From positions 192,870-256,869 of the forward strand of contig CP053449.1 in NCBI GenBank assembly GCA_013285465.1: a stretch of 64,000 nucleotides of DNA, written 5' to 3'. A program made the position numbers and the translations under genes. The notes beneath the pieces were generated by a model. That model was not told the DNA's origin, did no database searches, and saw only the letters and a list, made by a program, of their open reading frames with translations. Shown here one piece after another: positions 9,481-57,878 of this stretch (its first letter is position 1; every line of letters begins with the position of its first letter). This stretch comes from Pseudomonadota bacterium. Its GTDB lineage: Bacteria > Pseudomonadota > Alphaproteobacteria > Micavibrionales > CSBR16-224.

Positions 9481-9495
9481 GTACGGTCATATTTT

Positions 9496-36398: not shown

Positions 36399-36505
36399 CA
36401 GAGGTCTCCTGAAAAACTGTTACAAAGCGCGATTTTCATGTGTCGCAGATGTTTCATTCTACGAAATATACTTGAATCTTGCAAGCTGCGTGCTATGTTG
36501 CGCGC

Positions 36506-39385
36506 ATGGGCGATTATAACAGGGATATCCGCGTACGCGGGGCGCGTGAGCATAATCTGCGGAATGTCGATGTTGATATTCCGCGTGACAAGCTTGTGGT
36601 GGTGACGGGATTATCGGGCTCGGGGAAATCATCGCTGGCTTTTGACACGATTTATGCCGAAGGGCAGCGCCGCTATGTCGAGAGCCTGTCGGCATATGCG
36701 CGGCAGTTTCTGGAGATGATGCAAAAGCCGGATGTTGATTCCATTGAAGGGCTGTCGCCCGCGATTTCCATTGAACAGAAAACGACCTCGCGCAATCCGC
36801 GTTCCACCGTTGGGACGGTGACGGAAATTTATGATTATATGCGTCTGCTTTGGGCGCGGGTCGGTGTGCCGTATTCCCCTGTGACGGGCAAACCGATTAC
36901 CAGCCAGACTGTCAGCGAGATGGTTGATAAAGTCATGGAAATGGGGGACGGGGTGCGGCTGTATCTGTTGGCGCCGATTGTGCGCGGGCGTAAAGGGGAA
37001 TATAAAAAGGATTTGCAGGAGCTGCAAAAAAAGGGTTTCCAGCGCGTCAAAATTGACGGCAAAATCTATGATATTGATGATACGCCTGCGCTGGATAAGA
37101 AAATAAAACATGATATTGAAGTCGTGGTTGACCGTCTGGTCGTGCGCGAGGATATCGGGACGCGCCTGGCGGATTCGGTGGAAATTGCACTGGAGCTGTC
37201 GGACGGTTTGCTGATTGCCGAAAATGCCGATGACGGCAAGCAGACGGTTTTCTCCGCGCGTTTTGCCTGCCCTGTTTCCGGTTTTACCATCCCTGAGATT
37301 GAGCCGCGTTTGTTTTCCTTTAATAATCCGCATGGTGCCTGCCCCGATTGTGACGGTTTGGGCAACAAGATGCGGTTTGACCCTGAGCTGGTGGTGACGG
37401 ATGAAGATTTGCCGCTGAATAAGGGCGCGATTTCGGCATGGTCATCGCCTTACTATCAACAGGCGTTGCAAAGCCTGTGCGACCATTACGGTGTGAAGAT
37501 GAAAACGCCGTGGAAGGATTTGCCGGAACATGTGCGTGATGCCGTGTTATACGGATCGGGTGAGGAAGAGATCGCCATGATCTATGAAGGCGACCGCATC
37601 CGCCGCTATGAGGTTGTGCAGCCTTTTGAAGGTATTATTCCGAATTTGCGCCGCCGTTATTACGAAACCGACAGTCCGCGTATGCGGGAGGAACTGTCCC
37701 GTTATCAGTCCAGCCAGATTTGCGGCACCTGTGAAGGTTTCCGTTTAAAGCCTGAAGCGCTGGCAGTGAAAATTGACGGCAGACATGTCGGTGAAGTCTC
37801 GCTGCTGTCCATCGGCGAGGCGGTGAAATGGTTTGACCATGTACCGGAAACATTGTCGGAAAAGGATAATAATATCGCCGGACGGATTTTGAAGGAAATT
37901 CATGAGCGGCTGCATTTCCTGAATAATGTCGGGCTGGATTATTTAAGCCTGTCGCGGATGTCGGGGACGTTGTCGGGCGGGGAAAGTCAGCGTATCCGCC
38001 TTGCCTCGCAAATCGGTTCAGGCTTGACGGGGGTGCTTTATGTGCTGGACGAGCCGTCCATCGGGTTGCACCAGCGTGATAATAACCGTCTTTTGGAAAC
38101 GCTGAAACGGTTGCGCGATATGGGTAATACGGTGCTGGTTGTCGAACATGACGAAGATGCCATCCGTACCGCCGATTATCTGATTGATATGGGCCCGGGT
38201 GCGGGTATTCACGGCGGCGAGATTGTCGCGCTTGGCACGCCGGATGAGGTGATTGCCGCGGGAAAAGGTGTGACGGCTGAATATCTGAACGGCAAGCGTG
38301 AGATTTCTGTGCCGAAAACGCGCCGTCCGGGAAAACAGCTGGTCTTATCAGGCGGAAAGAAGCGCGGCGAATTTTTGCAGCTGATCGGGGCAACACATAA
38401 TAATCTGAAAGATGTGGATGTAAAAATTCCGCTGGGCACGATGACCTGCGTGACGGGTGTATCGGGCGGCGGGAAGTCATCGCTGATTATTGACACGCTT
38501 TATGCGGCGGCGGCGCGGCAATTGATGAAGGCACGGCAGACACCGGGTGAGTATCGTGAAATCCGCGGGCTGGAATATCTGGATAAGGTCATTGATATTG
38601 ACCAATCGCCGATCGGGCGGACGCCGCGCTCGAACCCCGCGACTTATACCGGTGCCTTTACGCCGATCCGTGAATGGTTTGCCGGACTGCCTGAGGCGAA
38701 GGCGCGCGGCTACGGGCCGGGGCGTTTCTCTTTTAATGTGAAGGGCGGGCGTTGTGAAACCTGTCAGGGTGACGGCGTCATCCGTATTGAGATGCATTTC
38801 CTGCCTGATGTGCATGTGACCTGTGACAGCTGTAAAGGTAAACGCTATAACCGCGAAACGCTGGAGATTAAATATCGCGGCAAATCCATTTCCGATGTGC
38901 TGGATATGACGGTTGAGGAAGGGCTGGATTTCTTTAAAGCCGTACCTGCGATTAAAAACCGTATGCAGACCTTGTTTGAAGTCGGGCTTGGTTACATCCA
39001 TATCGGGCAGCGGGCAACGACTTTGTCGGGCGGGGAGGCGCAGCGTGTGAAGCTGGCGAAGGAATTGTCGAAACGCTCGACAGGCAGAACGCTTTATATT
39101 CTGGATGAGCCGACAACAGGGCTGCATTTCGAAGATGTGCGCAAATTGCTGGAAGTGCTGCACCGCCTTGTCGATCAGGGGAATACGGTTGTGGTGATCG
39201 AGCATAATCTGGATGTGATCAAAACTGCTGACTGGCTGGTCGATATCGGGCCTGAAGGCGGCGACAAGGGCGGGCAGGTGATTGCCGAAGCCACCCCCGA
39301 AGGACTTGTGAAAGTGGCGGAGAGTTATACGGGGCAGTATTTGAAGCCGCTTTTGGCGCAAGTGAAAACGAAGAAATCAGCTTAA
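36506..39385 (+). CDS. uvrA: excinuclease ABC subunit A
   Basis: [50 protein letters not shown], two ABC modules ([12 protein letters not shown] and [12 protein letters not shown]), and zinc-finger cysteines. ATG 36506 preferred to 36479. Confidence 0.97.
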
Positions 39386-39440
39386 ATTTACATTTTGTAA
39401 ATTTTATATTGACATTTCGGGAATATTTCTGTAGTGTAAT
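39385..39440 (+). promoter_or_regulatory. island promoter module copy A: inverted repeat, UP-like A/T tract, -35 and -10
   Basis: Inverted repeat AATTTACA-TTT-TGTAAATT (39385-39403), TTGACA (39409-39414), a 17-nt spacer containing CGGGAA, then TAGTGT (39432-39437). The core is nearly identical to 41816-41846. Confidence 0.6.
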
Positions 39441-39477: not shown

Positions 39478-39735
39478 ATGACACAGGACAATATGGGCGA
39501 AAATGCCGGTATCCGAGAACGTATCAATGTTCTCGCCATTATTCGCGCGCTGGAAGACCATATTCTGAACGGTACGGAAATGAGTGCGACGCAGATTAAG
39601 GCGGCGCTGGTACTGCTGAAGAAAGCCGTGCCTGATATCACGGCGGCGGCGGAAGCCAAGAACCGCGAGATCAGCAAAGAAGAAATGCTGAAAATTCTGA
39701 AAAAACACGAAGACGCTTTGCAAGAGCTGGAATAA
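39478..39735 (+). CDS. small phage protein in the small-terminase (g1) position; function not established
   Basis: 85 aa (or 79 aa from MGENAG at 39496, which has AGGA upstream). Helical and charged (RINVLAIIRALEDHILNGTEMSATQIKAALVLLKKAVPDI). First gene of the island. Confidence 0.35.
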   Translation: MTQDNMGENAGIRERINVLAIIRALEDHILNGTEMSATQIKAALVLLKKAVPDITAAAEAKNREISKEEMLKILKKHEDALQELE

Positions 39736-39749
39736 GGAGATATCCGAAA

Positions 39750-40130
39750 ATGAGTGACATGACGGCACCGCGCATTACGGCGCGGGGAGAGATTGCGTTC
39801 GCTTTCGCGGGTGCGGAACATCTGTTTAAACCGACGCTGGCGAATATTGCCGCGCTGGAGGAGAAACACGGCAGCCTGTGGCTGCTGGTCGAGAAGATCG
39901 AGAAGAATGCGTTGCCGCTTTCCGCTTTGGCCGCGTCTTTTGCCGCGCTGCTGCCGCAGATGACGGAAGAGGAGATCGGTGCGGAAATTCTGCAGAAAGG
40001 CGCAGCGCATTATCTGCTGTTGCTGCTGCAAATCTGTGCGCCTTTGCTGACGGGATTGTCGGCAATCGGCGCGGCGCGGGAAGAGGATGTTCCGGCGGGG
40101 GAGGACAGCCCCCGGTGCGCCGGACTGTGA
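39750..40130 (+). CDS. tail assembly chaperone, RcGTA g10-like (paralogue 1)
   Basis: GEIAFAFAGAEHLFKPTLANIAALEEKHGSLWLLVEKIEKNALPLSALAASFAALL follows the pattern I recall for 'gene transfer agent family protein' (GEV..V.G....LRLTLGALAELE...G..SL..L..R...G..SA.DL.ALL.AGL). Confidence 0.55.
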   Translation: MSDMTAPRITARGEIAFAFAGAEHLFKPTLANIAALEEKHGSLWLLVEKIEKNALPLSALAASFAALLPQMTEEEIGAEILQKGAAHYLLLLLQICAPLLTGLSAIGAAREEDVPAGEDSPRCAGL

Positions 40131-40333
40131 CGGATGCGCGCAAGGCTGCGCGTTTTTGTCTTGGTGCGCTGGGGTGGACGCCGCAGGTTTTCCGCTGCGA
40201 GGCCGTATTGCAGGATATTATTGACGCGTTGGAAGGTTATGCGCTTTATCGGCTCGGCACGGATACGGCGGAGATGCGTTTGCCGCCTTCCGCCGCGTTT
40301 TTGAACGAGATGACGGCGCAGTTCCCCGATTGA
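40127..40333 (+). CDS. second tail assembly chaperone ORF, RcGTA g10.1-like
   Basis: GTG 40127 overlaps the TGA of the previous ORF (GTGA) and lies in its -1 frame. VTDARKAARFCLGALGWTPQVFRCEAVLQDIIDALEG resembles the G-L..LGL.P..FW.LTP.EL signature of the small GTA chaperone. Confidence 0.45.
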   Translation: MTDARKAARFCLGALGWTPQVFRCEAVLQDIIDALEGYALYRLGTDTAEMRLPPSAAFLNEMTAQFPD

Positions 40334-40334
40334 T

Positions 40335-41774
40335 ATGGACAAAAAAGAACGCGCCATCCGGCAAAGGCTGAAGGATGATTTCATTCATTACGCGGAAAAA
40401 TGCCTGAAAATCCGCTTGAAAACCGGCGGGGTTGCGCCGCTGATACTGAACCCTGCGCAGCGTTATATTCATGAGATGCTGGAGCGGCAGAAACGGGAAA
40501 CAGGACGCGTTCGTGCGCTGGTCTTGAAGGGGCGGCAGCAGGGATGTTCGACTTATGTCGCGGCGCGGTTTTACTGGCAGTTGACGCATCGGCGCGGTGC
40601 AAGCGGTTTTGTGTTGACCCATTTGGAGGCGGCATCGAAAAATATTTACAAGATTTTGCGCCGTTTTCACAAATTCTGTCCTGTCCTTGTGCGCCCTGAG
40701 GCGACGGCGGAGAATATGCAGGAGATGGTCTTCGGCAATCTGGAGACGGCCTACCGGATAGGAAGCGCGGGTTCGGCAGGAGTCGGGCGGTCGGACAGTC
40801 TGCAATATTTTCACGGATCGGAAGTGGCGTATTGGCCGCAAGCGACCACGCATATGGCGGGTATTTTGCAGGCCGTACCTGATCTGGCGGAGACGGAGAT
40901 TATCCTTGAAAGTACATCAGGGGGGGCGGAAGGACTATTTTATAAAATGTGCATGGCGGCGCAAAATGGCGAGATTCCTTATCAGCTGATTTTTGTGCCG
41001 TGGTTCTGGCAACCGGAATATGCGCTGGCTTTGCCGGAGGGCGTATTGGAGCTGACGGCGGAGGAAAAGGATATCAGCACGCATTATGATTTAACGCCGC
41101 AGCAGATTTATTGGCGGCGGATGCGGATCGGCGAGCTGGGGGGCGTTTGGGCGTTTCGCCGTGAATATCCTGCAACGGTGGAGGAGGCCTTTCATGCGGA
41201 TCGCCCCGGTGCGCTCTGGACGCGGGCGATGCTGGAAAAAAACCGTGTACAGGCGGCGCAAATTCCGCCGCTGTCGCGGATTGTCATTGCCATTGATCCT
41301 GCTGTGACCAGCAAAGAGGGCAGTGATGAAACCGGCATCATCGTCGCAGGTCTGGGTGAGGACGGGCATGGTTATGTATTGGAGGATTTAAGCGGCAGAT
41401 ACAGCCCGCGGCAATGGGCACAAAAAACCGTGGCGGCGTTTTGCCGTTATAAGGCCGACCGTATTGTCGCGGAAGTAAATCAAGGCGGGGATATGGTGAC
41501 GGCGGTTTTAAAAACATGTGATCCGCATATCCCTGTGAAAACGGTACGTGCCAGCCGCGGGAAATATGCCCGCGCCGAGCCCGTCGCAGCACTGGACGAG
41601 GCGGGGCAGGTGCATCATGCGGGTGTGCTGGGGATGCTGGAAGACCAGATGTGCGCATTTCTTCCCGGCGGCAGTACAGCTGCGGGCCAAAGCCCTGACC
41701 GTGTTGATGCCCGCGTCTGGGCAATCAGTGAGCTGATGCTGGGACGGAAAACGGATGGCCCGCAACTGTGGTGA
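40335..41774 (+). CDS. terminase large subunit
   Basis: Walker A-like VLKGRQQGCSTY in the N-terminal ATPase. The C-terminal nuclease half IVIAIDPAVTSKEGSDETGIIVAG...DRIVAEVNQGGDMV...ASRGKYARAEPVAAL is typical of GTA/HK97-type TerL. Confidence 0.88.
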   Translation: MDKKERAIRQRLKDDFIHYAEKCLKIRLKTGGVAPLILNPAQRYIHEMLERQKRETGRVRALVLKGRQQGCSTYVAARFYWQLTHRRGASGFVLTHLEAASKNIYKILRRFHKFCPVLVRPEATAENMQEMVFGNLETAYRIGSAGSAGVGRSDSLQYFHGSEVAYWPQATTHMAGILQAVPDLAETEIILESTSGGAEGLFYKMCMAAQNGEIPYQLIFVPWFWQPEYALALPEGVLELTAEEKDISTHYDLTPQQIYWRRMRIGELGGVWAFRREYPATVEEAFHADRPGALWTRAMLEKNRVQAAQIPPLSRIVIAIDPAVTSKEGSDETGIIVAGLGEDGHGYVLEDLSGRYSPRQWAQKTVAAFCRYKADRIVAEVNQGGDMVTAVLKTCDPHIPVKTVRASRGKYARAEPVAALDEAGQVHHAGVLGMLEDQMCAFLPGGSTAAGQSPDRVDARVWAISELMLGRKTDGPQLW

Positions 41775-41804
41775 AAATTCAAAAACGCAATAAATTGGAT
41801 AAAA

Positions 41805-41859
41805 AATTGCTAAAATGTAAATTTTTATCTTGACAATGCGGGAACAAAAGCAGTAAGCT
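41805..41859 (+). promoter_or_regulatory. island promoter module copy B (upstream of portal)
   Basis: AATTGCTAAAATGTAAATTTTTATC, TTGACA (41830-41835), ATGCGGGAA..., then TAAGCT (41854-41859; 18-nt spacer). Shares TGTAAATTTT..AT.TTGACA...CGGGAA with copy A. Confidence 0.55.
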
Positions 41860-41889
41860 TATTTCATCATCACAAATTCTTCTTTGCAG

Positions 41890-41924
41890 CGGCTTTTCGA
41901 CAGAAAGGCCGTTTTTGTTTTTTC
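41890..41924 (+). terminator. intrinsic terminator inside the portal leader, ~30 nt downstream of promoter copy B
   Basis: Stem CGGCTTTTC / GAAAGGCCG (one G-U pair), loop GACA, then TTTTTGTTTTTT. It lies between the promoter and the portal RBS (AAAGGA). Confidence 0.65.
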
Positions 41925-41949
41925 TACTTTTTGAAAAGGACAATACATC

Positions 41950-43191
41950 ATGGGATTGAAACACCGGATGACCGGTTTCTTTGGAGGCGGCAAAAATGCG
42001 GCGGAACAAAAAACAAGTGCGGCGGCACCGCTGCTGGTACAGTTTGGTACGGGACAGCCGCGCTTTACGCCGCGCCGTTATGACAGACTGGCGGAAGAGG
42101 GATTCCGCAAGAACGTCATTGCCTATCGCTGTATTCGTTTGATCGCACAGAATGCCGCGGCTGTGCCCTGGTCATTATACCAAGGGCATCAGGGCAACCG
42201 GGTCAAGCTGCATGATCATCCGCTGTTGTCTTTGATCAATCGTCCAAATCCGATGCAGGGGCGCGGCGAATTGATGGAAGCTTTATGCGGTTTCTTTATG
42301 ATTGCCGGTAATGCGTGGCTGGAGGCTGTCGGTCCGTCCGGCGAAACACCGCATGAGCTGTGGGCGCTTCGCCCTGACAGGATGACAATTGTGCCGGGAC
42401 GTGACGGTACGCCGGACGCCTATCGTTACAGCACGGGAGGTCAAAAAATAGACTTTAAAGTCGATCGCGTGACAGGGCGTGCGGCGGTGCTGCATTTGAA
42501 AAACTTTCATCCGCTGGATGACTGGTACGGGATGAGTCCGCTGGAAGCGGCGGCATTCAGTATTGACCAGCATAATGCGGCGGCGAAATGGAATACGGCT
42601 TTGCTGCAGAATTGCGGGCGTCCCGGCGGCGCATTGGTTTACAATCCGCCGCATGCCGACGGGCCGGATACGCTGACGGCAGAACAGCGGCAGGTTTTGA
42701 AAGACGATCTGGAGCGTCATTACAGCGGCGGTGATAATGCCGGACGGCCTCTGGTACTGGAAGGCGGGCTGGACTGGAAAGAAATGTCGCTGAGCCCGAA
42801 AGATATGGACTGGCTGGCGGGCAAGGATATGGCGGCGCGGGAAATTGCGCTGGCCTATAATGTGCCGCCGCAGCTGGTCGGGGTGGAGGGGTCACTGACC
42901 TATGCCAATTTCGAACAGGCGCGGCTGGCTTTATATGATGATGCCGTGCTGCCGCTATTGGCGCATATGCGGGACGAGCTGAATAACTGGCTGGTGCCGC
43001 AATTCGGCGCTGATTTGAAAATGGATTTCGATCTTGATGCTGTGGAGGCACTGGCGCCGCGCAGGGAAAAGATCTGGTCGCGCCTGAATAACGCCTCCTT
43101 TATGACGGTGAATGAGAAACGTGCGGCGCTTGGGTTATCTCCTCTGCCGGATGGGGACTGTCTGGAAATGCAATCAGAGCCCGCGTCCTGA
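41950..43191 (+). CDS. phage portal protein, HK97 family (g3-like)
   Basis: 413 aa. IAYRCIRLIAQNAAAVPWSLYQG...HPLLSLINRPNP...AGNAWLEAV and SPKDMDWLAGKDMAAREIALAYNVPPQLVG. Confidence 0.9.
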   Translation: MGLKHRMTGFFGGGKNAAEQKTSAAAPLLVQFGTGQPRFTPRRYDRLAEEGFRKNVIAYRCIRLIAQNAAAVPWSLYQGHQGNRVKLHDHPLLSLINRPNPMQGRGELMEALCGFFMIAGNAWLEAVGPSGETPHELWALRPDRMTIVPGRDGTPDAYRYSTGGQKIDFKVDRVTGRAAVLHLKNFHPLDDWYGMSPLEAAAFSIDQHNAAAKWNTALLQNCGRPGGALVYNPPHADGPDTLTAEQRQVLKDDLERHYSGGDNAGRPLVLEGGLDWKEMSLSPKDMDWLAGKDMAAREIALAYNVPPQLVGVEGSLTYANFEQARLALYDDAVLPLLAHMRDELNNWLVPQFGADLKMDFDLDAVEALAPRREKIWSRLNNASFMTVNEKRAALGLSPLPDGDCLEMQSEPAS

Positions 43192-43273
43192 CCCCTGCAA
43201 GAACTTGCAGTTGTATGCAGGTAAGGGATTATGTAGTTTCTTGGCAGATCAACGCGAACGGGGATGAGAAAAT

Positions 43274-43603
43274 ATGCACAAGACAGCACAAAAACATATC
43301 CGTCTTGATATCGGCAAAACCCGCTTTCTGGTGCGGCTGAGAATGCCGCTGGTCTGCCAGATTGAAGATGAAATCGGCGGGCTGCCGCTAATTCTGGCGA
43401 ATTTGCGCAGCCAGAACTGGAAACTGGCGGATCTGGTTGCGCTGGTTCATATCATGCTGGCCGAGGAAGGAACATCATATGATTACCATGAGCTGGGCAA
43501 TCATATCCTTTCGGCGGGAACGGGATATTATCACGGCAAGGTGACGGAGTTTTTGGAATTGTGTCTCGCCGATCTTCCGCAGTTTGCTGCCGGTCACGCT
43601 TAA
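43274..43603 (+). CDS. tail assembly chaperone, RcGTA g10-like (paralogue 2)
   Basis: FLVRLRMPLVCQIEDEIGGLPLILANLRSQNWKLADLVALVHIMLAEEG aligns position-for-position with paralogue 1 and with the g10 pattern. It directly precedes the tape-measure gene. Confidence 0.45.
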   Translation: MHKTAQKHIRLDIGKTRFLVRLRMPLVCQIEDEIGGLPLILANLRSQNWKLADLVALVHIMLAEEGTSYDYHELGNHILSAGTGYYHGKVTEFLELCLADLPQFAAGHA

Positions 43604-43621
43604 CGTCAAAAGGATCGTATC

Positions 43622-44374
43622 ATGAAAGAAGCAGAGGACAGTGTCCGCCTGGTGCGGGACGCGTTGCAGGATTATATCCATAGTCAGATTGTTGTGCCGC
43701 TGGAAAGTGATCAGAGCCTGCGCAATAAGGTGATGCGTGATTTACGCAGCCGCGCACAGACAGTCAATGAGACAGGGCGGCAGATGAGCGTCTTGAATGA
43801 TGCAATGACGGATGTGTCGCGGCGCGGTATCAAAAATCTGACCGATGGTTTGTTTTCGCTGTCAAAAAACGCCAGTGCGACGCAAAAGGCGCTGCATAAG
43901 GAATTATCGTCTTTGACGCGGGATTTGTTGAACGGCATTCTTGCACAGATCCGTGCGGCGGGAACACGGGGCATTGTGAATGCACCGGCAGAGACCGGCG
44001 GCGGATTACTTTCAGGCATATTTGAATGGGCGGGAGGGCTGCTCGGTTTTCGTGCGGGCGGCGGTTCGGTGATGCCGGGGCAGGCTTTTGTGGTCGGTGA
44101 AAAAGGCCCTGAATTGCTTGTGACGGGGCGGACATCGGGCACGGTCATTCCCAATGGTGGTGTTTCCGGCGGTGCGGCAGCGGTAAATGTGACAGTGATT
44201 AATAATGCCGGTGCGGAAGTGTCTGTGCGTGAAAGGCCGTCACGGGGCGGTGGTCGCGAGTTGGAAATTATGGTCGATGCGCTGGTGGCGAAATCCATCA
44301 GTCAAAGCGGGTCGAAAGCCTTTCAGGCGATGGAGGCGACTTATGGTCTGCGTCCGGTGTTAAACGGCAGATAA
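43622..44374 (+). CDS. short tail tape measure protein (g11-like), in a non-canonical position
   Basis: 250 aa. Helical N-terminal half, then GFRAGGGSVMPGQAFVVGEKGPELLVTGRTSGTVIPNG, the G-ExGPE motif of alphaproteobacterial phage/GTA tape measures. Confidence 0.6.
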   Translation: MKEAEDSVRLVRDALQDYIHSQIVVPLESDQSLRNKVMRDLRSRAQTVNETGRQMSVLNDAMTDVSRRGIKNLTDGLFSLSKNASATQKALHKELSSLTRDLLNGILAQIRAAGTRGIVNAPAETGGGLLSGIFEWAGGLLGFRAGGGSVMPGQAFVVGEKGPELLVTGRTSGTVIPNGGVSGGAAAVNVTVINNAGAEVSVRERPSRGGGRELEIMVDALVAKSISQSGSKAFQAMEATYGLRPVLNGR

Positions 44375-44384
44375 GGAAAAAATC

Positions 44385-45077
44385 ATGACAGGTCAGTTTT
44401 TGCAGGCGGCTTTCGGGATCGAGAAAGCCGGAGAGACAGGTGTGTTCGAAGGATATGCCTCCGTCTTTGATGAAATCGATAATGTAAAAGACCGTGTCGC
44501 ATCGGGAGCATTCCGTGCGTCATTGGAAACGCACCGCCGTCAGGGGCGTATGCCGCCGCTGTTGTGGCAGCATGATATGCGTGAACCTGTCGGTGTGTTG
44601 AAGGAAGTTTATGAAGATAAAAAAGGTCTGCGTATTCGCGGGCAGCTTTTTATTGAGGATATTCCGCGTGCCCGTCAGGCGCACCGCTTGATGAAAGAAA
44701 ACGGATTATCGGGGTTATCAATCGGTTTCCGTGCGGCGGAATCCGCTTTTGATCCGGGCACAGGTGTGCGGACATTGCTGAAAATCGATCTGATGGAAAT
44801 TTCGCTGGTGACCTTCCCTGCGCTGGACAGCGCACGGGTCGCCGGTGTGAAGGCGGCTCTGCAATCCGGCAATATGCCGCCTGTCAGGGCGTTTGAGGGT
44901 TTCCTGCGCGATGCAGGATTTAGCCGGAAACAGGCTAAGGGCATTATTGCCTGCGGCTATCATGGCTTGAAAACAGCGCCGCGCGATGCGGCGGAAGATG
45001 TAAATGACGGGGGTTCCGCTGAAGAGGCAGATATTTTGCTGAATTTGGCAGACCGTCTGCGGGAACTCGCGCTGTAG
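44385..45077 (+). CDS. HK97-family prohead protease (g4-like)
   Basis: FEGYASVFDEIDNVKDRVASGAFRASL...PPLLWQHDMREPVGV...GLSIGF...ISLVTFPA. Confidence 0.9.
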   Translation: MTGQFLQAAFGIEKAGETGVFEGYASVFDEIDNVKDRVASGAFRASLETHRRQGRMPPLLWQHDMREPVGVLKEVYEDKKGLRIRGQLFIEDIPRARQAHRLMKENGLSGLSIGFRAAESAFDPGTGVRTLLKIDLMEISLVTFPALDSARVAGVKAALQSGNMPPVRAFEGFLRDAGFSRKQAKGIIACGYHGLKTAPRDAAEDVNDGGSAEEADILLNLADRLRELAL

Positions 45078-45123: not shown

Positions 45124-46419
45124 ATGCGTCAAGATGTTAAAAACGCTGTCGGCGAGCTTGAAAAAGCTTTCGCCGATTTTAAACAGGTGAATGATATTCG
45201 TCTGAAGGAAATTGAGAATAAGGGCTCTGCCGATCCGTTGACGGATGTGAAAGTACAGCGCCTGAATCAGGAAATCAGCCGCGCGCAGGATGCCGCCATG
45301 ACGGCGAAGCAACGCGTAGATGTGCTGGAAACCGTGCTGAAACGTGCGCCTGTCGGCGGCAATACGGGCGGCGAATATGAGGAGGCCTGCCGCTTTGCGC
45401 TGGAATTGAAGGGCAATTGGCCTGCCGATGGCGGCGATGTGGAACAGTATCGCAGCTATAAAAAAGCCTTCCGCAATTATCTGCGTAAAAACAATGCCGG
45501 ATCGGATATTGAAGAAATCAAGGCGCTTTCGGCAGGGTCTGACCCTGACGGCGGTTATCTTGTGACGCCCGATATTTCCGGACGTATTGTGCAGTTGGTC
45601 AATGAAACCTCGCCTATGCGTCAGGTGGCCAATATCGTGACCATCGGTACGGACCGTCTGGAAGGAACGCGCGATCTTGACGAGGTGACGACAGGCTGGG
45701 TTGCGGAAACGGATGCGCGGACGGAAACCGACACCCCGCAGATCGGTCAATATGCCATTCCTGTGCATGAGCAATATGCGGAGCCGCGTGCAACGCAGCG
45801 TCTGCTGGATGATGCCATGTTCAATATCGAGGAATGGCTTGCCGCAAAAATTGCCGACAAGTTTTCCCGTATGGAAAACACGGCCTTTGTCAGCGGTGAC
45901 GGTACGGGCAAACCAAAAGGTTTCCTGACCTATGCCGCCGGTGTTCCGGACAGCACGACCTTTAACGTGATTGAGCAGGTTGTCAGCGGTGCAGCGGGGG
46001 CATTTGCCGCCAGTAATCCGGGTGATGCGCTGATCAATCTGATCTACAGCTTGAAAGGCGTTTATCGCAGCAATGCCGTTTTCATGATGAAACGTGCGAC
46101 GCTGGCGGAAGTGCGCAAGCTGAAAGATACGGATGGCAATTATATCTATAACCCCGATATGCAGAACAAGACCGGCGGCACGCTGTTCGGTTTCCCTGTT
46201 GTCGAGGCGGAAGATATGCCGGCACTGGCGGCTGACAGTCTGTCGATTGCCTTTGGTGACTTTAATGCCGGTTACCAGATTGTTGATCGTCAGGGGCTGC
46301 ATATTCTGCGTGACAATCTGACAGCCAAGCCTTTCGTCAAATTCTATACGACGAAACGTGTCGGCGGTGATGTTGTGAATTTCGAAGCCATTAAACTGAT
46401 GAAATTCGCGGCTGTCTAA
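45124..46419 (+). CDS. HK97-family major capsid protein (g5-like)
   Basis: 431 aa. N-terminal coiled delta-like region, then DPDGGYLVTPDISGRIV, TGKPKGFL, and a YNPDMQNKTGGTLFGFPVVEAEDMP C-terminal half. Confidence 0.92.
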   Translation: MRQDVKNAVGELEKAFADFKQVNDIRLKEIENKGSADPLTDVKVQRLNQEISRAQDAAMTAKQRVDVLETVLKRAPVGGNTGGEYEEACRFALELKGNWPADGGDVEQYRSYKKAFRNYLRKNNAGSDIEEIKALSAGSDPDGGYLVTPDISGRIVQLVNETSPMRQVANIVTIGTDRLEGTRDLDEVTTGWVAETDARTETDTPQIGQYAIPVHEQYAEPRATQRLLDDAMFNIEEWLAAKIADKFSRMENTAFVSGDGTGKPKGFLTYAAGVPDSTTFNVIEQVVSGAAGAFAASNPGDALINLIYSLKGVYRSNAVFMMKRATLAEVRKLKDTDGNYIYNPDMQNKTGGTLFGFPVVEAEDMPALAADSLSIAFGDFNAGYQIVDRQGLHILRDNLTAKPFVKFYTTKRVGGDVVNFEAIKLMKFAAV

Positions 46420-46496: not shown

Positions 46497-46673
46497 ATGA
46501 CGGTCAAAATAAAAGTCATCAAACCTTTCACTTTCGCTTATGACGGGATCAAGCCCGTACATTATGCGCCCGGCGAACACAGCGTCTCGCAGCGTTGCGC
46601 CGAAGTTGCCATTGCGGAAGGCTGGGCAAAAAAACAGCCCGCCAAAACAAAAAAGAAAGGCGGGAAAACATGA
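46497..46673 (+). CDS. small phage protein (58 aa), below the ORF-track cut-off
   Basis: Hand-translated: MTVKIKVIKPFTFAYDGIKPVHYAPGEHSVSQRCAEVAIAEGWAKKQPAKTKKKGGKT. AGGAG lies 7 nt upstream, and the stop overlaps the next start (ATGA). Confidence 0.5.
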   Translation: MTVKIKVIKPFTFAYDGIKPVHYAPGEHSVSQRCAEVAIAEGWAKKQPAKTKKKGGKT

Positions 46674-47251
46674 AAATGTCATTAATGCTGACGATACCGC
46701 CTGTCGCAGAGCCTGTTTCAACAGCGGAATTGCGTGATTATTTGCGCCTCGCTGCGGAGAGTGATGAAGCACTGTTATTTGAAATGATCAAAGCCGCACG
46801 CGGTATTTGCGAGGCTTTTACGGGACGCTGTTTTATCGCACAGGGCTATTCGTCATTTCTGGATGTCTTTCCGCAGGCGGGCGAACTTGGTTTTTCGCGT
46901 CTGCCGTTACTATCGCTGGATTTTGTAAAAATTCATACACCCGACGGTACTGTTGCGGAAGATGATTTGGGGAAATATGAAACGGATATTTCCGACGGGC
47001 GTATTGCCTTGAAAAACGGTGCTCTGCCGCCGCAATCCGCAAAACAGCACGGCGGTATTGAAATCGGTTTCACCGCCGGATATGGCGCGGAAGCAACGGA
47101 GGTGCCGTCCGCTTTGCGGCAGGCGGTGCTGCGGGTGGCGGCGGATTTGTATGAAAAGCGGGGCGATATGCAGTCCCCTTCCGGCAGTGTGATCCTGCGC
47201 AGCGGGGCGGCAGGGTTACTGCAGCCTTTCCGGGTTATGGGCGTGGAGTAA
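46670..47251 (+). CDS. head-tail connector (gp6-like; g6-like adaptor)
   Basis: MKMSLMLTIPPVAEPVSTAELRDYLRLAAESDEALLFEMIKAARGICEAFTGRCFIAQ is the classic gp6-like N-terminus. The start is trimmed from the track's 46595. Confidence 0.8.
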   Translation: MKMSLMLTIPPVAEPVSTAELRDYLRLAAESDEALLFEMIKAARGICEAFTGRCFIAQGYSSFLDVFPQAGELGFSRLPLLSLDFVKIHTPDGTVAEDDLGKYETDISDGRIALKNGALPPQSAKQHGGIEIGFTAGYGAEATEVPSALRQAVLRVAADLYEKRGDMQSPSGSVILRSGAAGLLQPFRVMGVE

Positions 47252-47256
47252 GGGCA

Positions 47257-47598
47257 ATGGATAAGGATATTATGATTGGCAGAATGACTCGTGCCATGAC
47301 TGTGGAATCGCCTGTTGTGAGTGCTGATGACGGCGGCGGTGCGGAGGTAATCTGGCAGGCTGTGGCGGAGAATTCTGTGATTGATGTGCAAAATCTGCAA
47401 GTAAAGGCAGCTGAAAAACTGCGGTTCTCACAGCTTTCCCGCCGGGTGACACATAAAATTGCTGCGCGCAACCATCCGGCACTCGTCACGGGGAACAGGC
47501 TTGTTGATGCAGAAGGTGCGGTCTACAGGATCACGGAAACAGAACAGGCTGACCGGCAGGGAGCCTATGCGGTTTGCTATCTGGAGCGCATGGTTTAG
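47257..47598 (+). CDS. head closure / head-tail joining protein (g7-like)
   Basis: 113 aa. MTRAMTVESPVVSADDGGGAEVIWQAVA...VTHKIAARNHPALVTGNRLVDAEGAVYRI. Confidence 0.75.
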   Translation: MDKDIMIGRMTRAMTVESPVVSADDGGGAEVIWQAVAENSVIDVQNLQVKAAEKLRFSQLSRRVTHKIAARNHPALVTGNRLVDAEGAVYRITETEQADRQGAYAVCYLERMV

Positions 47599-47601
47599 AT
47601 A

Positions 47602-48366
47602 TTATTCGCTGTCGCCGTCCGGTACGGTTTCTCCCTGATTGTCATCCGGAACGGTTTCCGGTTCCTGTGGGGAGGGAGCAGCTTGATCCGGGGCGACGGT
47701 TGCGATGTCCTGACCGGTTTCCGTGTTCCAGTGGATATGGGTCTGGGCAATATCTTCCCATTTTTTCTGTTTCCAGTTTTTGAGCGCTTCATCAGCTGCG
47801 GGACGGTTTTTGATCTCCATCTGCTTGTCGTAGATATGTTTTGCCAGTTTGTTTGCCGTACTGCGCATTCTGAGGGGAAGATCTCTGTCCCGCCCTGCCA
47901 GGCTGAGCCATTTATAGGAGTCTACCAGATCGGATTGCAGGCCGATTTTTTCGTCACCTGCGGCCAGTGCCATGCCGACGGCAAATTGTGCGACGGAGTT
48001 ATTGAGTTCTGCCGCTTTGCGGAACCATTCCAGTGCGGCTTTTTTATTTGCCTCGACACCCTGACCGCCGCTATAGAGCGCGGCAACGGAGACCATTGCC
48101 TCCGCATTGCCCTTTTGGGAGGATCTGAGGAAAAGGTCAAAGGCTTTTCCCGGGTCTTGCGGAACGCCGAGGCCGTCGGCATACATTTTGCCGAATAAAA
48201 GCAATGCGTCAGCATCGCCTTCCTGCGCGAGAGGGAGCAGAAATTGTGTCGCGGCAGCCCAGTTTTTTTGGTCGAATGCCGCTTTCCCGGCCGCAAAATC
48301 GGCACGGGCGGTGCCGGCGGATATAAAGACGCATAACGTAAAAGCAAGCAGGAATCTGTACAGCAT
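47602..48366 (-). CDS. secreted Sel1-like repeat (TPR-family) protein, antisense insertion in the head-tail module
   Basis: Signal peptide MLYRFLLAFTLCVFISAGTARA. Sel1 units GDADALLLFGKMYADGLGVPQDPGKAFDLFLRSSQKGNAEAMVSVAALYSGGQGVEANKKAALEWFRKAAE. Acidic P/E-rich tail. Confidence 0.85.
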   Translation of the reverse strand: MLYRFLLAFTLCVFISAGTARADFAAGKAAFDQKNWAAATQFLLPLAQEGDADALLLFGKMYADGLGVPQDPGKAFDLFLRSSQKGNAEAMVSVAALYSGGQGVEANKKAALEWFRKAAELNNSVAQFAVGMALAAGDEKIGLQSDLVDSYKWLSLAGRDRDLPLRMRSTANKLAKHIYDKQMEIKNRPAADEALKNWKQKKWEDIAQTHIHWNTETGQDIATVAPDQAAPSPQEPETVPDDNQGETVPDGDSE

Positions 48367-48418: not shown

Positions 48419-48444
48419 TTTTTTCTTGGCGAGGAGTGAAAGCC

Positions 48445-48867
48445 ATGACAGCAGACAGCCAATGGGCGGTGCAATCCGCTCTTTATGATAGTCTCTGCGG
48501 CGATAGCCAATTGATATCTCTTCTGAAAAACGGTGCGGAAAGTATTTTTGACGCCGTTCCGGATGATGCCGCACTGCCGTGCCTTGTGATGGCGGGAATG
48601 CGGACGGAGGCGTTTGAAACGCAAGCGGGCGGCGGAATGAAAATTCTGTTGTCTCTGGAGAGTTACAGCCGCTACCGCGGAATGCGTGAGTTAAAAATGA
48701 TTATGCAGGCTGTTTACGACCATCTGCACGGAAAGGATGACCTGCTTGTGGCCGGGCATCATGTTATTGACTGCCGCTTTTTGTCATCCAGAACACTGAT
48801 GGATGAAGACGGTTTGACGCGCCGCGCTGTGCAGAATTTTGAAATCCTGACGGAACCCGCTCTTTAG
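48445..48867 (+). CDS. DUF3168-type tail completion/terminator protein (g8-like)
   Basis: AVQSALYDSLCGDSQLISLL...IFDAVPDDAALPCLVMAG. ATG 48445 has GAGGAG 8 nt upstream; the track start 48436 is a GTG. Confidence 0.7.
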   Translation: MTADSQWAVQSALYDSLCGDSQLISLLKNGAESIFDAVPDDAALPCLVMAGMRTEAFETQAGGGMKILLSLESYSRYRGMRELKMIMQAVYDHLHGKDDLLVAGHHVIDCRFLSSRTLMDEDGLTRRAVQNFEILTEPAL

Positions 48868-48899: not shown

Positions 48900-49313
48900 A
48901 TGCCCAGTCAGAAAGGACGCGATTTTTTGCTGAAAGCCGGTGACGGCGGCAGTCCGGAAACATTTACGACAATCGGTGCCGCACGCAGCAATGCGCTGGT
49001 GGTGAATAATAACCCTGTCGATGATACGGCGATGGATAGCGGCGGCGTACAAAGCATGATTGCCGATGCCGGGGTGCAGACATTGCAGATTACCATTGAC
49101 GGATTATTTAAAAACGATGCGGCGGAAGAGCTGTTGCGCAGTGCGGCGATGGATAGGGTTGCCGCAAATTTCCAGCTTGCTTTCCCGAATGGTGACAGTT
49201 ATCAGGCCGCTTTTGTCGTGCAGGACTATAATCGCAGCGGCAGTTATGACGGGCTTGAAACATTCGCAGCGACATTGATCCGTACCGGATCCGGTGTTTT
49301 GACACCGGCTTAA
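48900..49313 (+). CDS. major tail (tube) protein, TP901-1/g9-like
   Basis: 137 aa. GRDFLLKAGDGGSPETFTTIGAARSNALVVNNNPVD...LQITIDGLF. Confidence 0.8.
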   Translation: MPSQKGRDFLLKAGDGGSPETFTTIGAARSNALVVNNNPVDDTAMDSGGVQSMIADAGVQTLQITIDGLFKNDAAEELLRSAAMDRVAANFQLAFPNGDSYQAAFVVQDYNRSGSYDGLETFAATLIRTGSGVLTPA

Positions 49314-49338: not shown

Positions 49339-49692
49339 ATGACAGCCCAATGGCCATCGGCATTGCCGGAGAGTCCGCTGACGGAGGCTTATGCAGAAGC
49401 CTTGCCGGATAATATTATACGCAGCAGTACGGATCAGGGTCCGGCAAAACTGCGCCGCAGAACAACGGCTGGTGTTCGTCATCTGCAACTTGCCTATATT
49501 TTGTCGGCGGCACAGACGGAACTGCTGGACGGATTTTATCTGGAGGATTTGCAAAGCGGCAGTCTGCCTTTCCTGCAATCCCATCCCCGTACCGGAGAGG
49601 AAAAGAGCATGCGTTTTAAATCGCCGCCTGATTATACGTCTTTGAATGGCGGCTATTTTCGCGTGACGCTTGAACTGGAGATACTGCCATGA
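49339..49692 (+). CDS. minor tail protein in the lambda gpM / distal-tail position
   Basis: 117 aa, WPSALPESPLTEAYAEALPDNIIRSSTDQGPAKLRRRTTAG. Assigned mainly from its position between the tube gene and the DUF1833 gene. Confidence 0.4.
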   Translation: MTAQWPSALPESPLTEAYAEALPDNIIRSSTDQGPAKLRRRTTAGVRHLQLAYILSAAQTELLDGFYLEDLQSGSLPFLQSHPRTGEEKSMRFKSPPDYTSLNGGYFRVTLELEILP

Positions 49693-50162
49693 GCCGTCCC
49701 TTGACACTGGCTGCGTTAAAAGCCGTGAATGCGCAGGAAACTGACGAGGTTTTTCTGGTTCTGCTGACGCTTGCCCATGAAAGCCTGATCCAGCCGCTGC
49801 GTGTGACAAGTGATGCGGTGAATACGGTAAGCCGGGGAGAGGTTTTTACCGCCTATCCTTTTGATTTGTCCCTGCCTGAAGACAGCGAGGCTTTGACGGC
49901 AACGGCGCATCTATCCATTGATAATGTGGACAGGGTGATCGTTGCAGCATTGCGCGGATTGCAGGATAGCCCGTCTGTGACGGTGGAAATTGTGCGGGCG
50001 TCTGCCCCTGATATTGTGGAGGCGGTTTTTCCTGATTTCCGCCTGTCGGAAATACAATATGATGCCGCCACGGTGACCGGCGTGCTGACAATTGAAGACT
50101 TTACGGCCGAACCTTATCCTGCCGCCGTCTTCACACCGGCGGGATTTCCCGGTCTTTTTTAG
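49689..50162 (+). CDS. DUF1833-type minor tail protein (gpL position)
   Basis: AVNAQETDEVFLVLLTLAHESLIQPLRVTSDAVNTVSRGEVFTAYPFDLSLPEDSE...IDNVDRVIV. ATGA overlap with the upstream ORF. Confidence 0.6.
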   Translation: MSRPLTLAALKAVNAQETDEVFLVLLTLAHESLIQPLRVTSDAVNTVSRGEVFTAYPFDLSLPEDSEALTATAHLSIDNVDRVIVAALRGLQDSPSVTVEIVRASAPDIVEAVFPDFRLSEIQYDAATVTGVLTIEDFTAEPYPAAVFTPAGFPGLF

Positions 50163-50254: not shown

Positions 50255-50292
50255 TTTTGCAAAACGCGCCGTTTTATGTACAATGGTATAAT
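50255..50292 (+). promoter_or_regulatory. strong sigma70-like promoter with palindromes, driving the small inserted gene
   Basis: TTGCAA (50257-62), 16 nt, TACAAT (50279-84), followed by TATAAT (50287-92). The 10-bp palindrome TTTTGCAAAA spans the -35, and the inverted repeat AAAACG-CGC-CGTTTT (50261-75) fills the spacer. Confidence 0.6.
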
Positions 50293-50351
50293 CAATTCGG
50301 ATAAGGAACAGTGGGTGAAACAATAAAAAAAGAAAAGAAGGAGCGGCGGAT

Positions 50352-50609
50352 ATGACAGATCAAGATAACACAGTACAGTCGGCATTCGGAACAGTTACCA
50401 GCACAACTGCAGCGGTTATGACAGCGCTGGATAATGTGGTTTCAGGCAATGAGGATGCTGTTAGTGCTATTCGCTCGACAGTACAAGCGAGTAGCAGTAA
50501 CAGTAATAGTAACAGCGCCAAAGCCGCAAAGGGGAACAGCAATAAATCCTCGACGACAAAATCACGCCCTTCGACGGCGATGTCGGGCAAAGGTGGTGGC
50601 GGACGCTAG
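50352..50609 (+). CDS. small S/N/T/K-rich protein (85 aa), autonomous gene inside the tail-tip module
   Basis: AAGGAG lies 7 nt upstream. Sequence MTDQDNTVQSAFGTVTSTTAAVMTALDNVVSGNEDAVSAIRSTVQASSSNSNSNSAKAAKGNSNKSSTTKSRPSTAMSGKGGGGR. It has its own promoter and terminator. Confidence 0.55.
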   Translation: MTDQDNTVQSAFGTVTSTTAAVMTALDNVVSGNEDAVSAIRSTVQASSSNSNSNSAKAAKGNSNKSSTTKSRPSTAMSGKGGGGR

Positions 50610-50650
50610 TTTTCTAGAGTTTTAAAACTCCTTCTAAGACAGAAATATAT

Positions 50651-50686
50651 GCACCCATATCTGAAACGGTATGGGTGCTTTTTTTT
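50651..50686 (+). terminator. rho-independent terminator of the small inserted gene
   Basis: Stem GCACCCATA / TATGGGTGC, 10-nt loop, then T8. Confidence 0.8.
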
Positions 50687-50731: not shown

Positions 50732-51148
50732 ATGCCGATCCCTTACTGGGCCGGTCATTATATCGGCTTGCCGTTCCGTGAGCACGGACGGAGCATTGCC
50801 GGAACGGATTGCTGGGGGTTGGTACGTCTTGTTTTGCAGGAACAGTTTGCGGCGGTTCTGCCGTCTTATGCCGCGGATTATCAGACAACCGGGAACGCAA
50901 CAGAGCTGGGGAAACTGATCGGGCAGGAAGCGGAGAAATGGATCGCCATATCTGCGGGACAAGAAAAATTGGGAGATGTCATTGTTTTAAGAATGCGGGG
51001 GGCACCGATGCATGTCGGGCTTGTTTTGGGAGACGGGCGAATGCTGCATATTGAAAAACATATCAACAGCGCCATCGAAGATTACCGCAGCAGGCGCTGG
51101 CGTGAACGGGTGACGGGGTTTTACCGTCATCCGCAGCTTGAAAAATAG
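50732..51148 (+). CDS. NlpC/P60-family tail peptidase (lambda gpK / g14-like)
   Basis: Catalytic Cys context GTDCWGLVRLV and His context GAPMHVGLVLGDGRMLH; 138 aa. Confidence 0.85.
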   Translation: MPIPYWAGHYIGLPFREHGRSIAGTDCWGLVRLVLQEQFAAVLPSYAADYQTTGNATELGKLIGQEAEKWIAISAGQEKLGDVIVLRMRGAPMHVGLVLGDGRMLHIEKHINSAIEDYRSRRWRERVTGFYRHPQLEK

Positions 51149-56051: not shown

Positions 56052-56321
56052 ATGGAAAATCACACATCATCGCTGCTGCCGGCGGTTTTTGCGGCGCTGT
56101 TTGCCGGAATGGGAACATTACTGGCCTCCGAAGAAAAACTGACATGGCGGATTGTTGTCGGGCGGGCATTGAGTTCAGCGGCGCTGGGGGCTGCGGCGGG
56201 AGCGATTTTTCTGTGGTTTCCCAATGCGCCGACGGCGGCGCTGGTCGGGGTTGCGGCATCGCTGGCCAGCCTTGGTACCAGCGGGCTTGAGAAATTACTG
56301 CAACTGGTTGCAAAGAAATAA
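56052..56321 (+). CDS. holin-like membrane protein
   Basis: 89 aa with 2-3 TM helices and a charged C-terminus (LLQLVAKK). First gene of the lysis block. Confidence 0.55.
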   Translation: MENHTSSLLPAVFAALFAGMGTLLASEEKLTWRIVVGRALSSAALGAAAGAIFLWFPNAPTAALVGVAASLASLGTSGLEKLLQLVAKK

Positions 56322-56341
56322 CCGAAAAGGAGTGACAGACA

Positions 56342-57516: not shown

Positions 57517-57861
57517 ATGGCGAAAAATAAAAATACTGGAAAAACTAAGGTCGCAAAATTTCCTGCTAATGGAAAAATTAGTGATACAGACCTTTTAAAA
57601 AAAATAAGGGAATTGATTGCGGCTGATAGTGGAAACTTGTTTTATACCAATCACGCGCTGGATCGTATGGAAGAACGAGGTTTTACCAGACGGCAGGTTG
57701 ATTGTTGTATCCAAAAGGGGTGGGTTAAAGAGCCCAATTACTACGATCATAAGAACGGAAATTATGTAGTTAGTATTACACGAGGGTGCGCTGGAGAGAC
57801 AATTGATGTCATTTTAGCTTGGTGTCCTGAAGATAATGTTGTTGTTATAACTGTTTATTGA
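57517..57861 (+). CDS. DUF4258-domain protein (putative toxin)
   Basis: NHALDRMEERGFTRRQVDCCIQKGWV...YVVSITRG...VITVY; 114 aa, AT-rich. Confidence 0.7.
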   Translation: MAKNKNTGKTKVAKFPANGKISDTDLLKKIRELIAADSGNLFYTNHALDRMEERGFTRRQVDCCIQKGWVKEPNYYDHKNGNYVVSITRGCAGETIDVILAWCPEDNVVVITVY

Positions 57862-57878
57862 TATGGAGGTATTTAAAA

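Follow-up and report, generated by a model that had tools for sequence, protein, structure and literature searches.

In long-tailed phages the gene for the tail tube is followed by the genes for the tail assembly chaperones (G/GT or g10/g10.1), the tape measure, and then the distal tail, an order shared with clusters of the type of the Rhodobacter capsulatus gene transfer agent (GTA; RcGTA). The succession tube-chaperones-tape measure is among the most constant features of long-tailed phage genomes, and annotators use it to name genes that evolve fast. In phage lambda the order is V-G-GT-H-M-L-K-I-J, with a conserved -1 frameshift between G and T, and in the RcGTA cluster (g1 to g15) g9 encodes the tube, g10/g10.1 the chaperones, and g11 the tape measure. 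The locus discussed here lies in a stretch of 64,000 nt ("the window"; CP053449.1, positions 192,870-256,869, assembly GCA_013285465.1, Pseudomonadota bacterium, Micavibrionales CSBR16-224) from a Micavibrio-like marine alphaproteobacterium. According to family searches, the window carries one head-tail gene cluster of ~17.5 kb on the + strand, from 39.4 to ~57 kb. We consider it likely that this cluster is a GTA-like element related to RcGTA that has become fixed in the chromosome, and that its tail-assembly genes have been relocated into the head module and act in trans. Coordinates below are positions within the window, and L-numbers (L001 etc.) denote loci of relatives that were compared. 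The features on which the argument turns are:

39478-39735, + strand: small gene at the g1 position, 85 amino acids (aa) from its ATG, which by its position may encode the small terminase
39750-40130, + strand: TACa, a g10-like tail assembly chaperone of 126 aa (Phage_TAC_11)
40097-40103, + strand: candidate -1 slip site G GGG GAG in the TACa frame, at a kept position
40115-40333, + strand: TACa2, a g10.1-like open reading frame (ORF) of 72 aa from a GTG, in the -1 frame (weak Phage_TAC_6 match and position)
40335-41774, + strand: TerL, the large terminase (Terminase_6C, E 1.6e-17)
41950-43191, + strand: portal (Phage_portal, E 7e-86; RcGTA portal Rcc01684, E 6e-102)
43274-43603, + strand: TACb, a second, diverged g10-like paralogue of 109 aa (Phage_TAC_11)
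43622-44374, + strand: short tape measure protein of 250 aa (tape-measure PHROGs, PDB 9occ_M)
44385-45077, + strand: prohead protease (Peptidase_S78, E 1e-33)
48900-49313, + strand: tail tube (Phage_tail_2, E 1e-24; RcGTA tube Rcc01691, E 9e-12)
49339-49692, + strand: gene of 117 aa at the lambda-M position (phrog_384, 1e-21)

The tube gene ends at 49313 and the gene at the M position starts at 49339. As the initial annotation of this stretch had described, neither a chaperone nor a tape measure gene lies between the two, and the 26 nt that separate them leave the canonical slot empty. The G/GT-type pair TACa-TACa2 is situated between the g1-like gene and TerL, not between tube and tape measure; TACb and the tape measure gene are found between the genes for portal and prohead protease. 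Family searches agree with the earlier naming of these flanking genes as TerL, portal, and prohead protease. No family match was obtained for the g1-position gene in profile searches, and orthologues occupy the same place in L001, L003, L085, L089, L098, and L099.

The order in relatives helps to decide which arrangement is the older. TerL, portal, protease, and capsid are ~50% identical to their counterparts in RcGTA-like clusters of Zavarzinia and sphingomonads. In the canonical cluster L055, the tube (9111-9518) is followed by g10 (9515-9826), g10.1 in the -1 frame (9823-10017), and g11 (10010-10579). In L007, L008, L049, and L064, a homologue of the tape measure directly precedes a homologue of the 117-aa gene, giving the order tape measure-M-DUF1833-NlpC-J, and in the Rhodovulum phage vB_RhkS_P1, as annotated, the M-position and DUF1833 genes come directly after the tape measure gene. 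All distant homologues of the tape measure are thus positioned either after a tube gene or just before M/DUF1833/NlpC/J genes, in keeping with the earlier proposal that the genes in the window are displaced. Since both comparison groups, RcGTA-like and DUF1833-tip, show the canonical order, the order in the window is therefore derived. In one further locus, L004, the portal gene is split and a tape-measure-like gene is broken in two; the locus seems to be full of errors and served as a positional hint only.

Both small ORFs had been assigned to the g10 family from the letters alone, and searches with the Phage_TAC_11 (PF11836) profile against TACa, TACb, and their orthologues place them there. 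TACa scores 40.5 bits (E 3e-10), above the gathering score of 27.8, while TACb, with 22.4 bits (E 1.3e-4), falls below it; the profile matches five of five TACb orthologues (best E 2e-7). A hidden Markov model (HMM) built from TACa matches the ORF directly after the tube gene in RcGTA-like clusters, and a word-indexed search with TACa returned close relatives only. Comparison of the two orthologue alignments with hhalign gives a probability of 93% (E 3e-7) over 88 columns, or 70% with shallower alignments, and recovers the exact register in which the two proteins had initially been aligned by hand. Identity between TACa and TACb is 22%, and BLASTP of one against the other produced no alignment. 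In a search of all six-frame ORFs of the window, the best non-self match of TACa is TACb, and vice versa. The AF2 models are of the same topology, a beta-hairpin and six helices, with pLDDT values of 83 for TACa, the disordered tail of which (residues 109-126) leads into the TACa2 overlap, and 85 for TACb. Both models return the same best BFVD matches, with A0A516M676 in first place (TM 0.77 for TACb) and proteins named tail assembly chaperone among them; Foldseek searches against the PDB revealed no solved relative of either protein. The relationship between the two is visible by profiles and structure only, and judged by profiles and predicted folds we regard the homology as secure.

TACb is the more diverged of the two copies and has no g10.1 partner. 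The duplication would be ancient, because the TACa and TACb HMMs each match ordinary g10 better than the other copy. When metagenome and viral contigs were scanned with TACb, the only matches were near-identical contigs from TARA and IMG/VR. Two other interpretations of TACb were considered and rejected. TACb occupies the same gap as g3.5 of RcGTA but is not its counterpart: the ORFs at the g3.5 position in sphingomonads are unrelated membrane-anchored proteins that the TACb HMM does not match, and the Zavarzinia clusters have no gene there. Read-through from TACb into the tape measure gene, which share a frame in the window, was discarded as well, as the frames differ in L001.

A g10.1-like partner had been noted behind the first g10-like ORF, and several lines of evidence point to TACa2 in this role. 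It overlaps the 3′ end of TACa in the -1 frame, and a second possible GTG, at 40127, overlaps the TACa stop codon. Phage_TAC_6 matches TACa2 weakly (E 0.019), as it does four of four orthologues (best E 7e-4). The TACa2 HMM matches the g10.1-position ORFs of the canonical RcGTA-like clusters L039 and L055, and the pattern LGW..P..FW....FPD is common to TACa2 and g10.1 of L055. Moreover, the -1-frame overlap of the chaperone ORFs is kept in the window, L085, L001, L003, and L099 as well as in the canonical cluster L055.

How the second frame is reached can be approached by comparing these overlaps. A canonical slippery heptamer of the type X XXY YYZ is not present in the TACa/TACa2 overlap of the window, and among the compared lineages it is found in L003 only, where G GGA AAG (the GGGAAAG of lambda) lies in register and the -1 frame opens exactly at the heptamer. 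At the homologous position the window, L085, L001, and L099 carry G GGG GAG. In the window this motif also contributes to a Shine-Dalgarno-like GGAGG, which the GTG at 40115 follows at a distance of 10 nt. A potential start codon (GTG or ATG) is situated 13 nt ahead of the TACa stop in the window, L085, and L003, and in the first two of these it is preceded by GGAGG. In L099 the -1 ORF has no ATG, GTG, or TTG start. From the in-register heptamer in L003, the kept G GGG GAG, and the lack of a start codon in L099, we therefore favor low-level -1 frameshifting as in lambda G/GT as the route to the TACa2 product, possibly beside independent initiation.

The 250-aa protein had been taken for a tape measure, and the profile matches point in the same direction. 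It matches the C-termini of several tape-measure PHROGs (best phrog_8892, 9e-10) and the C-terminus of the solved tape measure 9occ_M (gp18; profile match E 7.8e-8); there is no Pfam domain match. A tape measure homologue elsewhere in the window would have changed this assignment, and hmmsearch of all six-frame ORFs identified 43622-44374 as the only tape-measure-like ORF. The tape-measure PHROG match of the gene at 56342-56887 (1.6e-14) is due to its lysozyme/transglycosylase domain alone, and it was rejected as a second tape measure. Relatives of the 250-aa protein are few, all in Micavibrio-like metagenomic genomes, and tblastn found no match in a set of 50,697 phage genomes. Judged by composition, the protein seems to comprise a Gly/Pro-poor N-terminal part of ~120 residues, a Gly-rich middle with VVGEKGPELLV, and a C-terminal segment. 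The RcGTA g11 tape measure of 216 aa is built of 113+83+20 residues (PMC7296036), and the build of the 250-aa protein suggests a parallel to this three-part design.

The arrangement is kept in close relatives. The full gene order, including a Sel1-repeat gene on the minus strand, is common to the window, L001/L002 (labelled Micavibrio sp.), L003/L005, and L085, with tape-measure identities to the window of 65%, 52%, and 82% for the three groups, respectively. Portal-TACb-tape measure-protease is also seen in L086-88 and L092/93, and the Micavibrio-like loci with this arrangement range from 36 to 56% GC. The gene uvrA (36479-39385) is immediately upstream of the cluster in the window and, where the contig reaches, in L001 and L003/L005; its identity to the window is 87% in L001 and 80% in L003, and the cluster genes rank the same way. 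Between the window and L085, the ratio of nonsynonymous to synonymous substitution rates (dN/dS) is 0.10 for TACa, 0.19 for TACa2, 0.25 for TACb, and 0.14 for the tape measure, compared with 0.04-0.19 for other structural genes. Hence all four relocated genes are under purifying selection. No integrase, replication gene, repressor module, or tRNA/att site was found in the 64-kb window by family searches and tRNA scan, and Rfam and tRNA scans of the window gave no matches. Read from these comparisons, the pattern is that of a long-resident, functional, vertically inherited GTA-like element, and neither that of a decaying prophage nor that of a recent scramble. In some of these genomes the cluster is being broken up: L003 carries extra ORFs (5163-5459 and 7302-7652), one between TACa2 and TerL and a minus-strand one between TerL and portal, and in L092 (1-6610) the portal unit follows xerC/DUF484/SDF transporter genes with no TerL upstream.

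Because the genes are intact, selected, and single-purpose, their products most likely still do their standard job, in trans. Following the lambda G/GT/H paradigm, copies of the chaperone would coat a trimer of the tape measure. The TACa-TACa2 product, made by -1 frameshifting or coupled reinitiation, would link this complex to tube subunits, and the tube would then polymerize on an initiator composed of M, DUF1833, NlpC, and J. Growth of the tube would stop at the length of the tape measure, resulting in a short, RcGTA-like tail. A domesticated element may tolerate shuffling of its genes, since it exchanges no modules with phages, does not package its own genome, and has all of its parts made in one cell.

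Possible regulatory elements are located in three gaps of the relocated region:

39385-39437, + strand: promoter-like element P1 with the palindrome AATTTACA-N3-TGTAAATT, upstream of the first gene
41805-41858, + strand: second P1-like copy in the TerL/portal gap, with TTGACA at 41830-41835 and the spacer GCGGGAAC
41888-41913, + strand: terminator-like hairpin followed by a T-run (to 41924), between the second P1-like copy and the portal start
43195-43210, no strand: perfect palindrome CTGCAAGAACTTGCAG in the portal/TACb gap

In P1, TTGACA (39409-39414) is followed by a spacer containing CGGGAA and by TAGTGT (39432-39437), and the two copies share one design of an AT-rich palindrome, TTGACA, a CGGGAA spacer, and TAGNNT. 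Both copies are kept in L085, L001, and L003, and the exact string TTGAC-N4-CGGGA occurs at two sites in the window, which are the two copies themselves. They are putative promoters. The hairpin (z -3.7) has equivalents in L085, L001, and L003 (z about -3.2 to -3.7) in which the structure is kept and the sequence is not, and the layout is reminiscent of a late promoter with a downstream terminator that requires antitermination. The CTGCAAGAACTTGCAG palindrome, with a single exact match in the window, is present in six lineages of 36-56% GC, including paired variants CTACA...TGTAG, and could be an operator or an internal promoter region. Given the duplicated promoter-like element, the hairpin, and the separate palindrome, the cluster may be divided into several controlled units, the G/GT pair belonging to that of TerL, and TACb and the tape measure to that of the portal gene. 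Such a division fits with L092, where the portal unit is present without TerL.

The remainder of the cluster encodes the head, neck, and tail tip:

45124-46419, + strand: major capsid protein of HK97 type with an N-terminal extension (Phage_capsid, E 2e-89, residues 143-428)
46497-46673, + strand: 58-aa ORF
46670-47251, + strand: connector
47257-47598, + strand: head-completion protein
47602-48366, - strand: Sel1-repeat gene, between the head-completion and tail-completion genes
48436-48867, + strand: tail-completion gp17
49689-50162, + strand: DUF1833 minor tail protein (phrog_396/DUF1833)
50352-50609, + strand: 85-aa ORF
50732-51148, + strand: NlpC/P60 tail peptidase
51158-54871, + strand: TipJ-family central fibre/host-specificity protein (attach_TipJ_rel, 1.5e-63)
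54902-56032, + strand: fibre-like protein
56342-56887, + strand: endolysin-like enzyme (phrog_873, 2e-49)

Several of these genes merit a comment. The Sel1-repeat protein has a signal-peptide-like N-terminus, and its gene is kept on the minus strand in nearly all lineages (L001, L003, L085, L089/90, L093, and L098); in L100 an 88-aa Imm_superinfect-like gene replaces it. The 85-aa ORF, wedged between the DUF1833 and NlpC/P60 genes, is of low complexity and rich in Ser and Asn, and the region 50257-50678 includes its own TTGCAA-N16-TACAAT site and a strong terminator (50651-50678); the same slot holds a small, unrelated-looking ORF in L001, L003, L085, L098, and L100. The first ~260 residues of the TipJ-family protein (51158-51940), upstream of the FNIII-A_GpJ domain, contain a Gly-rich hydrophobic stretch and may correspond to lambda I, fused to the J-like protein; there is no separate gene of the I type. 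The endolysin/transglycosylase-like gene after the fibre-like gene has the endolysin family phrog_873 as its best match and is therefore probably the lysis or wall-degrading enzyme of the cluster; a minus-strand ORF overlapping it (56060-56602) has no family match. At the downstream edge (57517-58340), a DUF4258 protein followed by a helix-turn-helix protein (phrog_5119) forms a toxin-antitoxin-like pair, beyond which lie an aminotransferase gene and dnaX.

Compared with described systems, the cluster resembles RcGTA in its head, neck, and tube. Equivalents of g2, g3, g4, g5, g6, g7, g8, g9, g10, g10.1, g11, and g14 are present, the portal and tube match solved RcGTA proteins, and TerL, protease, capsid, connector, head-completion, and tail-completion genes follow the same order. 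The two also share a g10-family chaperone with a g10.1-like partner in the -1 frame, a short tape measure (250 aa here, 216 aa in RcGTA; PMC7296036), and fixation in the chromosome without lysogeny genes. However, g10/g10.1 precede TerL and g11 lies between portal and protease rather than after g9, there is an extra g10 paralogue, an opposite-strand Sel1 gene is located inside the cluster, and the tail tip is of the M/DUF1833/TipJ type and not of the g12/g13/g15 type, the equivalents of these three genes belonging to a different sequence family.

The tip has its relatives elsewhere, in the DUF1833-type tips of phages and prophages. Homologous tip genes in the same order (118-aa structural protein, DUF1833 protein, minor tail protein, J) are carried by the siphophages Rhodovulum vB_RhkS_P1, Rhodobacter RC1, and Rhizobium RHph_Y3_1, but there a 643-aa tape measure and the chaperones directly precede the tip genes, and the heads are Mu-like whereas the head encoded in the window is HK97/RcGTA-like. 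The likeness to lambda extends to the tube, the two-ORF chaperone with its second ORF in the -1 frame, the tape measure, the M-position gene, the K-like NlpC/P60 protein, and the TipJ-family J, and L003 even carries the exact heptamer of lambda in register. In contrast to lambda, the G/GT/H equivalents of the window are not positioned between V and M, its heptamer G GGG GAG is non-canonical, and there are two G-like genes.

GTAs of Holosporaceae/Rickettsiales endosymbionts provide a third comparison. In these, TerL is sometimes detached, and George et al. (2022, PMC9254644) report tail genes to be "missing or undetected". Deep-branching alphaproteobacterial hosts and conserved RcGTA-like head genes are common to both (PMC9254644), and the contigs L089, L091, and L099, rich in Ank repeats, look like such symbionts; the same study, however, reports no chaperone or tape measure in the portal/protease gap and makes no reference to such genes in the clusters it describes. 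For Micavibrio, only small clusters of RcGTA homologues have been described (Shakya et al., PMC5721377), and the Micavibrio genome paper does not mention the cluster. We found no account of the present arrangement in the GTA papers PMC5721377, PMC9254644, and PMC7296036, in a search of the open-access literature that was not exhaustive.

TACb extends well beyond the close relatives. An exhaustive HMMER search with the TACb profile matched 71 representatives of 50%-identity clusters at E<=1e-10, separated by a score gap from ordinary g10-like proteins, and TACb follows the portal gene in every lineage with readable context (12/12). The layouts outside the group of the window are:

L100: portal-TACb-protease, with the tube followed directly by M
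L089/90, L091, and L097: TACb followed by fibre-like or unrelated genes
L098: TACb in the gap, and a 127-aa gene at the canonical site after the tube
L099: portal-103-aa gene-TACb-(four cargo genes)-TACa-TACa2-tape measure (146 aa)-protease

In L098 the 127-aa gene shows a weak match to the tape-measure C-terminus (hhalign E 5.7e-4, probability 29%), which is suggestive. The gap in L091 holds four minus-strand genes. Gap content was inspected in L099 (10344-12650), L097 (763-1458), L089 (10296-10622), and L098 (10303-13101): the fibre-like genes share the N-terminal motif ...EWEVGTGH...TL.RDTV.ASSN..., and a GDSL lipase and small, Ig-like-looking ORFs are found as well. The portal/protease gap thus seems to serve generally as a site where tail accessories are inserted.

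The initial annotation had also proposed that the g10-g10.1-g11 block was duplicated, split, and transposed. Duplication holds for the g10-like gene, which is present in two copies, and not for the block as a whole. Splitting and transposition accord with L099, where TACa-TACa2-tape measure lies just upstream of the protease gene, in the gap of TACb, and this intact block inside the gap is a plausible intermediate. Because TACb is found beside the portal gene in far more lineages than share the rest of the arrangement, this placement would have come first. The tape measure, with or without the G/GT pair, would have joined TACb later in some branches, and in the Micavibrio branch the G/GT pair would then have moved in front of TerL. 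The two copies appear to be old paralogues, one of which may have been acquired independently.

What TACb does beside the portal gene bears on the alternatives. It is conceivable, though in our judgement unlikely, that TACb was co-opted for a head- or portal-linked job, such as chaperoning another gap-encoded protein or serving in a portal-proximal tail plug, and that its adjacency to the tape measure is secondary. TACb follows the portal gene in all 12 readable lineages and has the tape measure beside it in the Micavibrio-like group only; it is followed directly by the protease gene in L100 and by fibre-like or lipase genes in L089, L097, L098, and L099; and it is the more diverged copy, without a g10.1 partner. 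Yet TACb belongs by fold and family to the tail assembly chaperones, for which no head function is known, and within the window group it is directly followed by the tape measure gene in eight contigs, with GC contents from 36 to 56%. We give rather little weight to the idea that no duplication took place within the cluster and that one chaperone, with or without the tape measure, came from another phage with a lambda/RC1-type tip, the other copy being the ancestral RcGTA-type gene. In its favor, the element is a mosaic, with an RcGTA-like head, neck, and tube and a DUF1833/TipJ tip of the type in Rhodovulum, Rhodobacter, and Rhizobium phages, and either chaperone copy resembles ordinary g10 more than it does the other copy. 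But the TACb HMM matches nothing beside the tape measure in the DUF1833-type loci L007, L008, L049, and L064, the HMMs of both copies match g10 ORFs of RcGTA-like clusters, and in L098 TACb is present while a tape-measure-like gene, by its weak match, is still at the canonical site.

That the cluster is an ordinary, possibly defective prophage, the order of which was scrambled by decay and has no functional meaning, is very improbable. An IMG/VR contig (L095) that is 99% identical in the TACb region is filed as viral, and insertions or splits are seen in the extra ORFs of L003, in L092 without an upstream TerL, and in the four minus-strand gap genes of L091. Decay is nevertheless difficult to reconcile with genes that are all intact at dN/dS values of 0.04-0.25, with the same order and chromosomal site across genomes of 37-56% GC, with a window that has no integrase, repressor module, replication gene, or tRNA att site, and with identities to L001 and L003 that rank alike for uvrA and the cluster genes. 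Some points also weigh against the reading that we prefer, a GTA-like element with relocated tail-assembly genes. GTA status and a functional tail are deduced from the genes. The tip (the 117-aa M protein, DUF1833, and J) has no sequence match in the PDB, although the RcGTA tail proteins are solved structures deposited there (PMC7296036), which makes the element a mosaic rather than a simple orthologue of RcGTA. Given the lack of a canonical heptamer in the window, the GGAGG and GTG could give TACa2 without frameshifting. TACb may not be a tape-measure chaperone only, as it is kept beside the portal gene where no tape measure is visible nearby (L100, L089), and the rearrangement may have run from L099-like to window-like or in the reverse direction.

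Taken together, the observations permit a wider, tentative reading, which we hold to be possible without thinking it probable: a broad, undescribed RcGTA-related clade with rewired tail assembly. Its members would be the ~70 TACb clusters (50% identity) of Micavibrio-like alphaproteobacteria and of Ank-rich ones that are probably symbionts. Its features would be a g10 paralogue of its own fixed beside the portal gene; a portal/protease gap that receives incoming tail genes (the tape measure, the G/GT pair, and fibre-like genes); and units that are separately controlled through the duplicated promoter-like element, the leader terminator before the portal gene, and the palindrome before TACb. 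If this is true, the two chaperone copies would have split the roles of lambda G and GT, and the "missing" tail genes of symbiont GTAs would partly hide in the head module.

A conserved and selected exception to the order tube-chaperones-tape measure would imply that assembly can do without this order after an element has been domesticated, and it would offer a natural test of whether gene order, co-translation, or dosage matters for the determination of tail length. A GTA survey that looks for g10/g10.1/g11 behind g9 will count such clusters among those without tail genes, which bears on the small or "tail-less" GTA clusters reported from Micavibrio, Rhodospirillales, and endosymbionts. In this context, the TACb profile provides a marker for the clade.

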